64,000 nt of DNA from an uncultured Candidatus Saccharibacteria bacterium (GCA_965230995.1 OZ246398.1:464213-528212); one strand, 5' to 3'. Positions 170-34,471 are shown, counted from the stretch's first letter. Translations and numbers: made by a program. The notes: a model not told the origin generated them from the letters alone.

Positions 170-200
170 AAAACCCCAAAGAATATCTTTGGGATTTAAT
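170..200 (-). terminator. Intrinsic terminator hairpin (cccaaaga-atat-ctttggg plus T-run on minus strand), downstream of the partial tRNA-Leu 3' copy
   Basis: Inverted repeat plus U-tract read on the minus strand. Confidence 0.5.
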
Positions 201-204
201 GTTT

Positions 205-224
205 TTGTGGGCAGGAGAGGACTT
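205..224 (-). repeat. Partial duplicate of the tRNA-Leu(TAG) 3' end (T-loop to discriminator, ttgtgggcaggagaggactt). Att-like remnant.
   Basis: Identical 20 nt to 401-420, where the full tRNA ends; diverges upstream of the T-loop. Confidence 0.7.
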
Positions 225-227
225 GGT

Positions 228-290
228 CGCAACTCTTCTGCTACGATAAATCTACGCGACGAAGGTTGCGACCCCGCCTCCGCGACAAGT
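228..290. repeat. Copy A of a ~58-nt conserved module (ggtcgcaactcttctgctacgataaatctacgcgacgaaggttgcgaccccgcctc); forms a 9-bp stem with ~30-nt loop
   Basis: Near-identical copy at 11158-11215. Spurious ORFs 189..395 and 11140..11364 share the peptide NSSATINLR[D/N]EG.DPASAT only because of this nucleotide conservation. Confidence 0.6.
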
Positions 291-359
291 ATTATTTTTC
301 GTAAACTCAAAATAATCTTGTGTACCGCGTCCGGCTTTCAAGTCCTTACTTCCTCACAA

Positions 360-403
360 AACAAAAAGCCCCAGAGCTATTGCTCTGAAGCTTAATGTTT
401 TTG
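360..403 (-). terminator. Intrinsic terminator directly downstream of tRNA-Leu(TAG) (gcttcagagc-aata-gctctgggg plus T-run on minus strand)
   Basis: Hairpin plus U-tract. Confidence 0.6.
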
Positions 404-484
404 TGGGCAGGAGAGGACTTGAACCTCCATGGGTTACCCCGCTTGCTCCTAAGGCAAGTGCGTCTACCATTTCGCCACCTGCCC
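404..484 (-). tRNA. tRNA-Leu (anticodon TAG), long variable arm, CCA not encoded
   Basis: Cloverleaf read by hand: acceptor gggcagg/cctgccc, anticodon loop cttagga, T-loop ttcaagt. Confidence 0.8.
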
Positions 485-6285: not shown

Positions 6286-7134
6286 TTGCTATCATATATC
6301 TATATGGAAGACCTCACAAAACAACAAGTAATTTTGCTGGCTCTGCTCCTGTCTTTTGTTACATCAATCGGAACTGGAATTATAACCGTGTCACTTTTAG
6401 ACGAGGCGCCAGAGACTGTTACCCAGACAATAAACCGAGTCGTTGAGAGAACAATAGAAAACGTCTTGCCAACCGAGACGACCATAAAAGAAACAGAGAC
6501 TCAGACCAGAGTAGTAGTAGAAAAAGATGACACGATATCAAACGCAATATCTAAATCCTCAAAAGCATTGGTGAGAGTTTATACTGCATCAGGCGAAGAT
6601 CGTGCGTTCTTTTCAATGGGTGTTGTAGTAAGGGACGATGGACTTGTTGCTGTATCTTCTTTAGGTTTTGTTCCGACTTACAAATACATTGCTGTCTTTG
6701 ATGACAAAAAGGAATACGAATTGAAAGCTTCCGAAGAAGAATCTGTTTCTGAAATTGCTTTTCTCAAAGCTGTTTTGAAAGAAGAAGAAAATAAAAAATT
6801 TGATATCGCAGAAATTATCTCTCCCAAGGATTTAAAACTCGGTCAGACAATAATAAATATCGGAGGCGATAAAAATATGTCTGTTCAGGTGGGCAGGATT
6901 TCATCTCTACCAAAACTTAAAGACAAAGATGAAAAAGAATATATATCTGCAATAGAAACAGACATAAGTTCGGCCACATTAGGAAGCGTTATTGTTGATT
7001 TGTCGGGAATGATTGTGGGCTTTAATTCGATAGTCGGAGATCTAAAATTAAACAAATCTTTTACCCCGGCCCAAAATCTAATTCCAATTAAAAAAGAAGT
7101 CGTAGAAACCCCTCCAACAAACAACAATCCATAA
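6286..7134 (+). CDS. Membrane-anchored protein with a degenerate trypsin/HtrA-like fold (predicted inactive)
   Basis: N-terminal TM. The region aligns loosely with the HtrA protease domain, but the His and the GNSGG serine motif are absent. Confidence 0.3.
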   Translation: MLSYIYMEDLTKQQVILLALLLSFVTSIGTGIITVSLLDEAPETVTQTINRVVERTIENVLPTETTIKETETQTRVVVEKDDTISNAISKSSKALVRVYTASGEDRAFFSMGVVVRDDGLVAVSSLGFVPTYKYIAVFDDKKEYELKASEEESVSEIAFLKAVLKEEENKKFDIAEIISPKDLKLGQTIINIGGDKNMSVQVGRISSLPKLKDKDEKEYISAIETDISSATLGSVIVDLSGMIVGFNSIVGDLKLNKSFTPAQNLIPIKKEVVETPPTNNNP

Positions 7135-11044: not shown

Positions 11045-11061
11045 AAATACATTTTACATTA

Positions 11062-11440
11062 ATAGGGAGGGCGTGGCGAGGAGAGGGGTTGAGGGTCCGA
11101 ACCTTACGGGGTTAGTACCGTGATTGGATTTAGGAGGGATTGATTGAGGAATTCGGTCACAACTCTTCTGCTACGATAAATCTACGCAACGAAGGTCGCG
11201 ACCCCGCCTCGGCTACAGTTTCTCGTTCCTCGAAACTGGCTTCGCAGCCTCCGTCTTTCGAATCCCTCCCTATACGCTACATAAGTACAACAAAAAAACG
11301 CTATCGCGTTTGTTTTGTGTATTTTGTGAGGACTCGAACCTTACAGGTTCAGTGCATAAGTTAGGATTTTGATTGGGAGGGATTGATCCCGCAGTTACTA
11401 AGTAAAATAATTCGTTCGTAAACTCACTCTTATTTTACTA
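11062..11440. repeat. Mosaic of short repeated modules upstream of tRNA-Tyr. Includes an X module (gaaccttacRGgttMagt…gattggattt) at ~11088 and ~11336, a Z module (ggagggattgat) at ~11122 and ~11376, Y module copy B at 11158-11215, and ttcgtaaactca at ~11410 (also at ~303).
   Basis: Direct sequence comparison with 205-320 and 18544-18600. Internal terminator-like hairpin at ~11296-11325. Confidence 0.6.
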
Positions 11441-11573
11441 AGTACTGCTGGACGCGGCTCGACGTCGTACTCGCTCCGCTCCGTGCGACATGTCTCCGCC
11501 GGTTCGAATCCCACGCAAAAGCAAAACTGCTTTTGCTTCCCTACGCAAAAATGCACCAAAGGTGCATTTTTTT

Positions 11574-11655
11574 GTGCGTAGGGAGGGATTCGAACCCCCG
11601 TAGACTATGTCGCCTGATTTACAGTCAGGTGCGATTGACCACTCCGCCACCTACG
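11574..11655 (-). tRNA. tRNA-Tyr (anticodon GTA), long variable arm
   Basis: Acceptor gcgtagg/cctacgc, anticodon loop ctgtaaa, T-loop ttcgaat. Spurious ORF 11438..11650 overlaps it. Confidence 0.8.
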
Positions 11656-11766
11656 CATTTATAGGAACGAGTATAACATACTTTAATATTTTTGGTAGGG
11701 CAAAAAAGTATGACAAAATGGCAATTTTTGATATCATAAATACCATATAAATTTAATCCATTTTTT

Positions 11767-13868: not shown

Positions 13869-13940
13869 TGGGCCTATAGTTTCAATGGTAAAACGTCGGT
13901 CTCCAAAACCGTTGTTCTCCGTTCGAGTCGGAGTGGGCCC
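13869..13940 (+). tRNA. tRNA-Trp (anticodon CCA)
   Basis: Acceptor gggccta/tgggccc, anticodon arm tcggt-ctccaaa-accgt, T-loop ttcgagt. Confidence 0.7.
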
Positions 13941-13995
13941 GCAAACAAAAAACCGCGTCCGCCAGCTGGCGGAGCGGTTTTTTGTTTGCTGGGCG
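13941..13995. terminator. Long nested palindrome terminator (gcaaacaaaaaaccgc-gtccgccagctggcggag-gcggttttttgtttgc)
   Basis: 16-bp outer stem, inner hairpin, T-runs on both sides. Confidence 0.6.
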
Positions 13996-14099
13996 GAGGT
14001 ATGTGCGTTTGCACATTACGTCTCCGACTCGAAAGGGGGAGTTTTTTGAGCTTTGTATTTGTATAGAATTTTATCTTTCATTGTGCTATCCTTTTGTAA

Positions 14100-15425: not shown

Positions 15426-15550
15426 ATTGAGAACCTAATATTGTTCTAAATATAGATTTTTGTCTACACAAAAACCGCTTAACGCGGTTTGTTGTTAGTG
15501 CTGTTATCATTATGCATTTTTTTAATGCCATCCTTAATATTTATTGATAT

Positions 15551-18192: not shown

Positions 18193-18543
18193 AATACTAA
18201 CATTGTCTATCCAAATAATCAATATCCAAATTTTAGATATTGTAATAAACTGTATTTAGTTCCTTCACACCCGCCCCCAACCCAAAACTGACGGAAACCA
18301 AAACAGCATTTCTCCCTAGGTCTCTCCGGCGGGCGAGAAAAGAAAGTTGTTCATGTTTTGCAAAAAACGAGCACCGAATCGGAATCGTCAGGACATTTTC
18401 AAATATTCGCCGAGGGTGATCCAGAGTCGGGTGGTAGGCTTCATTCTCCGCTTTCATTTTTGAAGGTGATTATCGCAAATGATATGATTAGAACACTAAA
18501 AACAAAAATCCCAGACACTTTCGTGTCTGAGATTAATGTTTTT

Positions 18544-18600
18544 GGTGCCGAAGGAGGGACTTGAACCTTACAGGTTCAGTACCCCGATTGGATTTTTCTG
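18544..18600 (-). repeat. Partial duplicate of the tRNA-Leu(CAA) 3' end (18544-18566), fused to an X-module copy (gaaccttacaggttcagtaccccgattggattt)
   Basis: Identical ~23 nt to 18707-18729; terminator hairpins on both sides. Confidence 0.7.
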
Positions 18601-18708
18601 TTCGTTCCACTCCAGAAAAATGCACAATCGGGCTTCAGTCCCTCACGAAAGGTTCCCCGAACCTTTCTCTTCGTCACACAAAAACCGCATAACGCGGTTT
18701 GTTGTTTG

Positions 18709-18790
18709 TGCCGAAGGAGGGACTTGAACCCTCATCCCTTGCGAGACACGATTTTGAGTCGTGCGCGTATACCAATTCCGCCACTTCGGC
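18709..18790 (-). tRNA. tRNA-Leu (anticodon CAA)
   Basis: Acceptor gccgaag/cttcggc, anticodon loop ctcaaaa, long variable arm, T-loop ttcaagt. Confidence 0.8.
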
Positions 18791-34216: not shown

Positions 34217-34471
34217 ATGTATCACGTCTACATACTCAAATGCAAAGACGGCACGCTATACACAGGAATCACTAATGATTTAGACAGAAGATTTTCTCAA
34301 CACAAAAACGGAAAGGGTGGACACTACACCAGCTCAAAAAGAGTATCAGAAATTGTATATACAGAAGAGTACCCCGACAGATCTTCGGCATCAAAAAGGG
34401 AAGCTGAAATCAAAAAATGGCGACGAGAAAAGAAACTAGACCTCATAAAATCAAACAAGCAAAAAAATTAA
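34217..34471 (+). CDS. Second small GIY-YIG nuclease-family protein
   Basis: YHVYILKCKDGTLYTGITNDLDRRFSQH motif; 84 aa. Confidence 0.75.
   Translation: MYHVYILKCKDGTLYTGITNDLDRRFSQHKNGKGGHYTSSKRVSEIVYTEEYPDRSSASKREAEIKKWRREKKLDLIKSNKQKN

Follow-up and report, generated by a model that had tools for sequence, protein, structure and literature searches.

Stacked hairpin units with copied tRNA 3′ ends downstream of a tRNA-Tyr gene in a small-genome bacterium of the Patescibacteria

Short multi-copy intergenic hairpins are known as REP, BIME and REPIN sequences with their RAYT transposases and as MITE-like palindromes, with a foot motif that reads GTAG in REPs. Integron arrays are built on attC sites, which are used as folded hairpins with the R″/R′ consensus RYYYAAC/GTTRRRY, together with IntI, attI and Pc. 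Elements directed to transfer RNA (tRNA) genes include the tyrosine-integrase islands, which split such a gene and restore it, so that the end of the island is marked by a displaced fragment (PMC4383910). Here, we present a computational analysis of a locus which resembles each of these systems in part. It is an array of hairpin-rich units located on the 3′ side of a tRNA-Tyr gene in a stretch of 64,000 nt (GCA_965230995.1 OZ246398.1:464213-528212, referred to as the window) recorded under an uncultured Candidatus Saccharibacteria bacterium. The host is a small-genome member of the Patescibacteria (Candidate Phyla Radiation, CPR), and the window is chromosomal.

It is well supported that positions 11060-11573 represent a decayed stack of four units of one family, a "graveyard array" anchored on tRNA-Tyr. 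The family itself is apparently large and undescribed, and occurs just downstream of tRNA genes at hundreds of loci in the tiny genomes of Patescibacteria. No description of these elements was found in the full-text literature, a source in which not all journals are covered.

The array downstream of tRNA-Tyr

The array lies between tRNA-Tyr and a gene encoding an Lnb_N domain. Its functional anchor, tRNA-Tyr(GTA), occupies positions 11574-11656 on the minus strand (ARAGORN; 63 bits in Rfam), and the 3′ end of this gene is copied into the units, which are described here on the same strand. Two of the four stacked units are truncated and belong to a type termed X, one is a complete unit of a second type, Y, and one is a complete unit proximal to the tRNA. 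Together they hold three core types (X, Y and a third), and all of them have Tyr-derived flanks.

At the outer end (11063-11103) lie the oldest displaced tRNA 3′-end remnants, which read GGTTCGGACCCTC...CCCTCCCTA on the minus strand and comprise a T-loop, a T-stem and the first part of the tRNA-Tyr acceptor 3′ strand, all in degenerate form; CCCTCCCTA corresponds to the T-stem 3′ strand and acceptor start of the gene. These remnants form the far copy of X unit 1 (11099-11131), in which the core variant GAACCTTACGGGGTTAGTAC is retained and the long hairpin is reduced to its 5′ half. In a BLAST comparison inside the window this segment is 85% identical to 18563-18595 at tRNA-Leu(CAA), with E ~1e-4. 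It is followed by the far copy of the Y unit (11132-11144), which repeats the T-loop and T-stem 3′ strand of tRNA-Tyr in direct orientation and decayed form and has the plus-strand sequence aggagggattgat, to be compared with tagggagggattcgaa at 11579-11594 in the tRNA. The complete Y-type unit (11155-11277) consists of the Y hairpin (11155-11203), the sequence CCGCCTCGGC, a short hairpin (11216-11238) and the inverted tRNA-Tyr 3′ end TTCGAATCCCTCCCTAtaCGC (11257-11277), of which 11257-11272 matches 11594-11579 at 16 of 16 positions. Its module at 11155-11217 is 92% identical over 63 nt to 225-287 at tRNA-Leu(TAG) (72 nt at 90% in BLAST, E ~1e-19), and the predicted minus-strand fold of 11132-11277 has a z-score of -4.8.

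Between the Y unit and the next X unit, a palindromic bidirectional terminator (11296-11311), with a terminator-like score on both strands, marks a former tRNA-proximal position. X unit 2 (11326-11374) is truncated as well and contains a displaced, decayed tRNA 3′ end (minus-strand GGTTCGAGTCCTCAC), the core at 11336-11355 and the 5′ half of the long hairpin. The segment 11330-11353 is 96% identical to 18557-18580 (E ~1e-4 to 4e-4), and a covariance model of the X unit matches 11327-11436 with 25.3 bits (E = 0.004). The far copy of the proximal unit is gggagggattgatc (11375-11388), where T-loop and T-stem of tRNA-Tyr are repeated a second time, again decayed and in direct orientation; the unit itself extends from 11393 to 11547. 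This unit comprises a long hairpin with a TTCGTAAACTCA loop (11393-11446), a second hairpin homologous to the long hairpin of another fetched locus, L061 (11464-11489), the inverted tRNA-Tyr T-loop followed by CCC (11503-11512), an inserted 26-nt hairpin H (11513-11538) and the inverted acceptor 3′ strand with the discriminator, CCCTACGCA (11539-11547). The same layout of T-loop, T-stem, H and acceptor is common to 85 of 155 units elsewhere. The bidirectional terminator t1 (11547-11573), recognisable by its A-run, hairpin and T-run, separates tRNA-Tyr from the inverted copy of its own 3′ end.

An initial annotation had described 11060-11440 as a mosaic of reusable modules tied to tRNA genes. 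This description was borne out, and all modules listed in it are present, with small corrections of coordinates and wording; the repeat structure does not end at 11440 but runs on to the tRNA at 11574. The T-arm-like halves it reported are real tRNA 3′-end copies but were not captured from outside, as they match the adjacent tRNA, once in direct and once in inverted orientation. Likewise, ggagggattgat (11133-11144 and 11376-11387), which had been regarded as a module of its own, is a slightly decayed reverse complement of the tRNA-Tyr T-stem and loop; copies of the motif ttcgtaaactca are found at 11415-11426 and at about 298-309. Two X copies do exist in the array, but both break off within the long hairpin, behind its 5′ half, and the covariance model misses the first and gives about 25 bits for the second. 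The junction had been considered identical in all three X copies of the window (cores at 11099-11118, 11336-11355 and 18563-18582); it reads cctgtaa-ggttc in two of them and ccgtaa-ggttc in the first (11099-11110). The open reading frames (ORFs) at 189..395 and 11140..11364 are indeed artefacts, since both read Y in the same frame and the Y homologues in other genomes keep the hairpin while carrying stops in frame.

A side observation concerns positions 11174-11203 of the Y hairpin. Two public short-read contigs of the same strain (L001 and L002), 100% identical to the window, both stop within this 30-mer, which is unique in the window; this suggests further contexts elsewhere in the genome or population.

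A family of units flanked by tRNA 3′ ends

Comparison of the loci fetched from other genomes and metagenomes gives a common order of elements. In the direction of the tRNA, a gene ending in the segment S (T-loop, T-stem 3′ strand, acceptor 3′ strand and discriminator) is followed by the palindromic bidirectional terminator t1 and by S′, the exact reverse complement of S, in which a hairpin H of about 25 nt stands between the acceptor and T-stem parts in the 85 units mentioned above. Next come GAA, a long variable hairpin, GTACT and a 5-bp hairpin with a TGTAA loop, which is the X core (canonical stem GAACC/GGTTC) and can be substituted by the Y hairpin. The unit continues with GA(A/T), to which a 14-nt mini hairpin in the T-loop may be added, and a direct copy of T-stem, acceptor and discriminator which sometimes reaches into the trailer; behind it lie the older trailer and terminator of the tRNA. 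Pairing of S′ with the far S is possible over about 16 bp and would close a three-way junction.

The X core pattern was detected at at least 120 metagenome loci, and the exact X 20-mer in at least 118 stretches of species-representative genomes, a collection of 596 Gb in which about one occurrence is expected by chance. Among the genome records listed, 79 of 80 are Patescibacteria or carry uninformative names, with labels such as Paceibacteria, Nomura-, Zambryski- and Kaiserbacteria and 'Saccharibacteria' metagenome-assembled genomes (MAGs); several X copies per MAG were seen. Nearly all X-core matches have the same flanking architecture. In fetched loci with any tRNA, 169 of 192 cores lie on the 3′ side of a tRNA gene within 300 nt of it, and on the strand opposite to it. 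Their distance to the tRNA has its mode at 100-140 nt and is nearly always 55-300 nt, a single orientation is kept, and the associated tRNAs represent 36 different anticodons.

Y is a second core type in the same slot and, judged by eye, occurs at other tRNAs in other genomes; the exact Y 24-mer gave no match in reference genomes, Y being too variable for an exact search. At tRNA-Leu(CAA), the position of an X-type unit in the window, a Y-type unit is found in a relative whose ParB is 81% identical. Further conserved cores, for example ...GTGTCCCGCGGCACC..TAGATTGTGAG... and ...GACGAAAAAGTTTTAGTCGAGG..., fill the slot between inverted and direct tRNA-end copies in L029 (about 1550-1750), L058 (about 6950-7110), L036, L096, L120 and L180. 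Because other core families occupy this slot, X and Y are only two members of a larger superfamily.

The flanks of the units are specific for the neighbouring tRNA. The near inverted T-stem copy differs from it by at most one mismatch in 124 of 155 units, an acceptor copy exists in 105 units, and the far direct T-stem copy stays within the same mismatch limit in 145 of 155. Where a G·U pair or mismatch in the tRNA distinguishes its two strands, the inverted copy agrees with the 3′ strand at 86 positions, with the 5′ strand at 3 and with neither at 11; it is therefore an inverted repeat at the DNA level and not a copy of the tRNA 5′ half. An inverted tRNA gene with an internal deletion was rejected as a source, since the copies follow the 3′ strand and trailer instead of the 5′ strand and leader. 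At several loci the repeated sequence continues into the trailer, which indicates duplication of genomic DNA and not of mature tRNA. The far copy ends at the discriminator, with a terminator next in the examples inspected. A cDNA origin from mature tRNA was likewise rejected, because CCA follows in only 13 of 72 far copies and several share the gene's own trailer. Long perfect palindromes span the acceptor 3′ strand through the terminator, 31 of 97 having at least 8 perfect outer pairs, and at 12 further tRNAs the inverted acceptor copy occurs alone. The terminator t1 has the form of a bidirectional intrinsic terminator (A run, hairpin and T run), with the T run present in 75 and the A run in 72 of 97 loci.

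All helices of the units pair far above shuffled-partner controls, with several pair types per position. For the X hairpin, 32 complementary stem variants occur in the fetched loci with loop and GTACT unchanged, and RNAalifold gives compensatory changes in 18 of 20 predicted pairs. Copies elsewhere are thus abundant and their stems covary, while the initial annotation would have been contradicted by modules confined to this region and free of covariation. G·U pairs are unusually scarce: the X hairpin has 0.4%, H 0.8-1.7% and the long hairpin 2-4%, compared with 4-5% for the acceptor and T stems of the adjacent tRNAs. In canonical X units the T-loop GGTTC is paired inside the X hairpin. A search of the window and a model locus against Rfam 15, at gathering and permissive thresholds (E up to 10), returned tRNAs only; sub-threshold hits were unrelated microRNA and small RNA models, so that the suggested Rfam check yields no family beyond tRNAs.

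Individual loci illustrate a considerable turnover. Three nested far-copy remnants are found in L011, and L034 shows the chain S, terminator, S′, X, S, terminator, S′. In L005 (4650-5030), tRNA-Arg(TCG) is followed by a tandem array of four X units of 88 nt each, the last of which closes with 3′-end sequence from another tRNA, GGTTCGATTCTCCCTGCCCGCA; this foreign end implies rearrangement between tRNA loci via the shared core. In the orphan unit of L144, the tRNA is missing, with the break exactly at the discriminator. One or two protein genes in L142 (4160-5960) and L058 (5700-7250) are bracketed by duplicated blocks, each made of a tRNA 3′ end, a terminator and a unit; the older tRNA copy is a fragment, and the arrangements look like small cargo-carrying insertions at a tRNA. 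An autonomous version of the element was sought between core and tRNA, and the genes in L058 and L142 proved to be of housekeeping type (HAD hydrolases by eye), with no recombinases among them. Hairpin types assort independently, as the same type of long hairpin or H occurs at different tRNAs and one tRNA carries different combinations across genomes.

Sister loci and neighbouring genes

The window contains seven tRNA genes and housekeeping genes for ClpB, alanine racemase, MiaA, ParB and a FemAB-family protein; part of its ORFs was put through a protein scan. Named relatives of the ParB protein are annotated as Paceibacterota or Patescibacteria. Within these 64 kb, the modules are confined to three loci, namely tRNA-Tyr, tRNA-Leu(TAG) and tRNA-Leu(CAA), and in each of them the tRNA's own 3′ end is duplicated downstream, and the X or Y module is separated from the tRNA by an additional, inverted copy.

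Downstream of tRNA-Leu(TAG), a Y-type unit (196-421, minus strand) was identified from the sequence, a repeat search and BLAST. It is bounded by a perfect 30-nt direct repeat of tRNA 3′ end and trailer (196-225 and 392-421, 30 of 30 identical) and contains the Y hairpin (225-273), a long hairpin (288-319) and an inverted tRNA-like 3′ end (337-357, or 337-361 in the repeat search). Just beyond the displaced tRNA-Leu(TAG) 3′ fragment, positions 1-150 hold the end of an ORF (...EVGRYRTEEEAVEAKCKLSPEEQHRTLLRSVRPMCR*) with clearly higher G+C content than the surroundings, followed by a hairpin; this may be foreign DNA abutting the tRNA locus.

The intact X-type unit downstream of tRNA-Leu(CAA) (18545-18700, minus strand) was delineated by sequence, covariance model and fold. 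It consists of the direct tRNA 3′-end copy (18545-18567), the core (18563-18582), the long hairpin (18583-18632), the inverted T-loop and T-stem (18633-18644), hairpin H (18645-18668), the inverted acceptor strand (18669-18677) and the terminator t1 (18682-18700). A further terminator is located at 18507-18534, and 18537-18567 forms a 94% direct repeat with 18700-18730. The X copy at 18554-18645 scores 78.7 bits in the covariance model, whose seed included this sequence. The whole unit is predicted to fold into the expected multi-branch structure at -60.6 kcal/mol (z = -6.5).

Several other places in the window show traces of a similar kind. After tRNA-Trp (13870-13942, plus strand), a palindromic terminator is followed by the tRNA's own acceptor, T-stem and T-loop in inverted orientation (13988-14033), with an inserted hairpin at 14000-14018; core and far direct copy are absent, and this may be an incomplete or early-stage unit. 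A 31-nt copy (97%) of the terminator after tRNA-Leu(CAA) (18676-18706), including the first tRNA-end bases (GTGC), is found at 15466-15501 downstream of miaA with no tRNA nearby, and may stem from a tRNA locus that has been lost or be a mobile terminator. Over 42 nt, tRNA-Leu(TAG) (359-400) and tRNA-Leu(TAA) (2285-2325) have 86% identity in their trailers and terminators, and the motif AAAAACATTAA of the tRNA-Leu trailers also follows the displaced tRNA-Leu(CAA) end, so that tRNA trailers appear to have been swapped between loci. Directly after tRNA-Gln(TTG), which has no unit, an ORF at 34219-34430 (MYHVYILKCKDGTLYTGITNDL...) is by eye a candidate for a GIY-YIG-like nuclease.

Nature of the units and known systems

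With somewhat less than even confidence, we favour a reading in which the units are small non-autonomous DNA cassettes with hairpin structure that recombine at the repeat formed by the tRNA T-loop and 3′ end and subsequently decay. Each addition would supply a fresh tRNA 3′ end and terminator beside the gene, and the earlier 3′ end with its unit would be pushed outward to decay by truncation. An enzyme acting in trans, with its gene elsewhere, would recognise the hairpins with conserved loops in their folded state, as single-stranded DNA or cruciforms, and the shared core and T-loop sequences would let units swap hairpin modules. On this model, tRNA-Tyr in the window would have experienced at least four such rounds, involving three core types. 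DNA cassettes are favoured because the palindromes are perfect and poor in G·U pairs, because the unit sits behind a terminator, because a regenerated gene with a displaced fragment is the known signature of tRNA-targeting islands (PMC4383910), and because stacks are heterogeneous, orphans occur and modules are shuffled. The serial site-specific insertion proposed in the initial annotation holds in so far as the stack looks like successive additions with displaced 3′ fragments; the site-specific step is our deduction, with no recombinase and no viral copy found.

Several observations weigh against cassettes. An imported cassette should not match the T-stem and acceptor of 36 different tRNAs, and since the flanks do so, the copies would have to be made locally or kept by gene conversion. 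No integrase, transposase or other recombinase recurs within 3 kb of the units, as judged by clustering of the neighbours at about 240 loci, and the few loci inspected individually were without an integrase. The recurrent neighbours are housekeeping genes in families of synteny type; the three scanned encode a UPF0102, an HTH and a DUF5673 protein, and one cluster resembles a CCA-adding enzyme by eye. No Y1 transposase was present among the recurrent neighbour families examined; the scan also took in the part of the window ORFs mentioned above. Neither an empty and filled allele pair nor an excised circle was seen; of the loci compared via ParB homologues, one relative has a different synteny and the contig of the other ends inside the unit. 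Furthermore, hairpin types found at a tRNA in one genome recur at this tRNA in others, as would also be expected of a functional element inherited vertically over a long time. On the tRNA-sense strand, the fold is better than on its complement in 165 of 203 units, by about 2-4 kcal/mol, and for the long hairpin alone in 88 of 110, with about twice as many G·U pairs there. The loop and junction bases of GTACT and TGTAA are strongly conserved beside covarying stems, as in functional RNAs. The main weaknesses of the cassette reading are the missing enzyme and the unexplained acquisition of 3′-end copies from the own tRNA.

These strand and conservation data speak for a structured RNA, which we regard as possible and as a somewhat weaker candidate than the cassettes. 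The unit would be a three-way-junction RNA on the read-through transcript of the tRNA, with a closing helix made of the tRNA acceptor and T-stem 3′ strand and its antisense. It could be excised by RNase P or RNase Z in the manner of a tRNA and act, specifically for the neighbouring tRNA, in 3′-end processing, quality control or defence. In addition to the preference for the tRNA-sense strand and the recurrence of hairpin types at the same tRNA, this reading would account for the conserved single-stranded GTACT, TGTAA and GAA next to covarying stems, for the very stable predicted folds (z = -6.5 and -4.8) and for far copies that end at the discriminator, in 13 of 72 cases with CCA, before a terminator in the inspected examples. 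It is opposed by the terminator-like hairpin and T run between tRNA and unit at 75 of 97 loci, by G·U pairs much rarer than in tRNA stems, and by the closing helix, which copies the 3′ strand exactly, with loss of the G·U identity pairs, and is no faithful mimic of an acceptor stem. Many copies are truncated or orphaned, and Rfam offers no match at E up to 10. Transcription in the opposite orientation gains no support either, since upstream promoter-like sites are not enriched (9 of 193 versus 16 of 193 on the control strand); an independent gene on the strand opposite the tRNA was rejected for this reason. The initial annotation's alternative of small structured RNAs is accordingly weakened, as it lacks promoter support and each unit lies behind a terminator.

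Passive growth of palindromes appears improbable. In this scenario, template switching of replication at the terminator hairpin extends into the tRNA 3′ end (S, S′, S), and the spacer hairpins are neutral and gene-converted, with neither a function nor a machinery dedicated to them. It would produce the long perfect palindromes from acceptor 3′ strand through terminator (31 of 97 with at least 8 outer pairs), the near absence of G·U, the tRNA-Trp locus with an inverted copy and H without core or far copy, and the 12 further tRNAs with an inverted acceptor copy alone. What it leaves unexplained is an identical core 20-mer at hundreds of loci in many genera, the fixed order and spacing of five distinct hairpins, the conserved loops alongside covarying stems, and the several core families (X, Y and others) in one position.

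The X 20-mer and the Y 24-mer had no match in IMG/VR (2.9 million viral contigs; plasmid collections were not searched), and all 54 matches of a relaxed X-core pattern in the viral contigs were chance matches, none able to form the hairpin. Scars of phage or island integration, left when tyrosine-integrase elements in the tRNA T-loop were later deleted with joining of attL and attR, are therefore very unlikely: the regenerated tRNA with a displaced 3′ fragment and direct repeats from the T-loop matches the island signature of PMC4383910, and protein genes stand between duplicated blocks in two loci, but true copies of either core are absent from these viral contigs, no integrase was found near the roughly 240 loci, the same precise deletion product of 100-170 nt would be needed independently at hundreds of loci, and an inverted tRNA copy and covarying hairpins are not features of att arms.

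Taken further, we tentatively suggest that the units, with a conserved multi-hairpin core clamped by a helix templated on the 3′ end of each tRNA, form a class of host element not recognised before, in one of two roles. They may be tRNA-specific structured RNAs, both antisense to and mimics of the 3′ end, in maturation, surveillance or defence, or they may belong to a new kind of recombination system which uses T-arm DNA as a programmable site and copies its target. Genomes of Patescibacteria are minimal and have little non-coding DNA, yet many of their tRNA genes carry a conserved, tRNA-matched hairpin structure of 100-200 bp. As mobile cassettes, the units would constitute a tRNA-templated insertion system without a recombinase of its own that rearranges the surroundings of tRNA genes, interrupts short-read assemblies (the two public contigs of the strain both end inside the Y module) and gives rise to spurious ORF calls. 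As RNAs, they would amount to a new family of regulators or mimics specific for tRNAs, in a quarter of bacterial diversity that is poorly understood. In either case, annotators obtain a concrete model for the removal of false genes and tRNA pseudogene calls, and the 20-nt core with the GTACT and TGTAA motifs provides a defined experimental target.

Among known systems, hammerhead ribozymes, retrons, integron attC sites and IS200/IS605 ends were rejected in a comparison of motifs, as their defining motifs or adjacent genes are absent. With the tRNA-like domain of tmRNA, mascRNA, YrlA and viral tRNA-like structures, the units share an acceptor and T-stem helix that ends at the discriminator, sometimes with CCA, and helices inserted at the place of the T-loop. 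Unlike in these RNAs, the 5′ strand of the unit is a perfect antisense of the 3′ strand instead of the tRNA's own, a canonical T-loop fold is impossible, and an Rfam match is absent. Integron cassette arrays are similar in their serial addition at a fixed site, with the newest member proximal, and in folded-hairpin sites with covarying stems and conserved unpaired bases. They differ in having IntI, attI and Pc, whereas the units as a rule lack an ORF and are anchored on a tRNA gene; by eye, neither the T-loop GTTCGAA nor the core fits RYYYAAC/GTTRRRY, and no integrase is adjacent.

Like REP, BIME, REPIN and MITE-like repeats, the units are short, non-coding, multi-copy and mosaic, are found near terminators and have a foot motif, GTACT, and their enzyme is probably encoded elsewhere. 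In contrast to the REP/REPIN-RAYT system, they occur strictly at tRNA 3′ ends in one orientation, have tRNA-templated flanks and keep a core conserved across many genera instead of within one species group, and no RAYT-like gene was identified in the recurrent neighbour families and the scanned window ORFs. Compared with tRNA-targeting islands and prophages, the units are small (100-200 bp), without ORFs or integrase and usually without cargo, and they hold an inverted tRNA 3′-end copy and a conserved multi-hairpin core for which no viral counterpart was found in the viral contigs searched. With the T-loop sublocation class of these elements (the Islander concept, PMC4383910), they share the 3′ part of a tRNA gene as target, regeneration of the gene, a remaining fragment that starts at the T-loop and events that stack downstream. 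The regenerated tRNA and displaced 3′ fragment are likewise present here as bounding direct repeats, both at tRNA-Leu(TAG), where 196-225 equals 392-421, and, as a far direct T-stem copy, in 145 of 155 units of the family.

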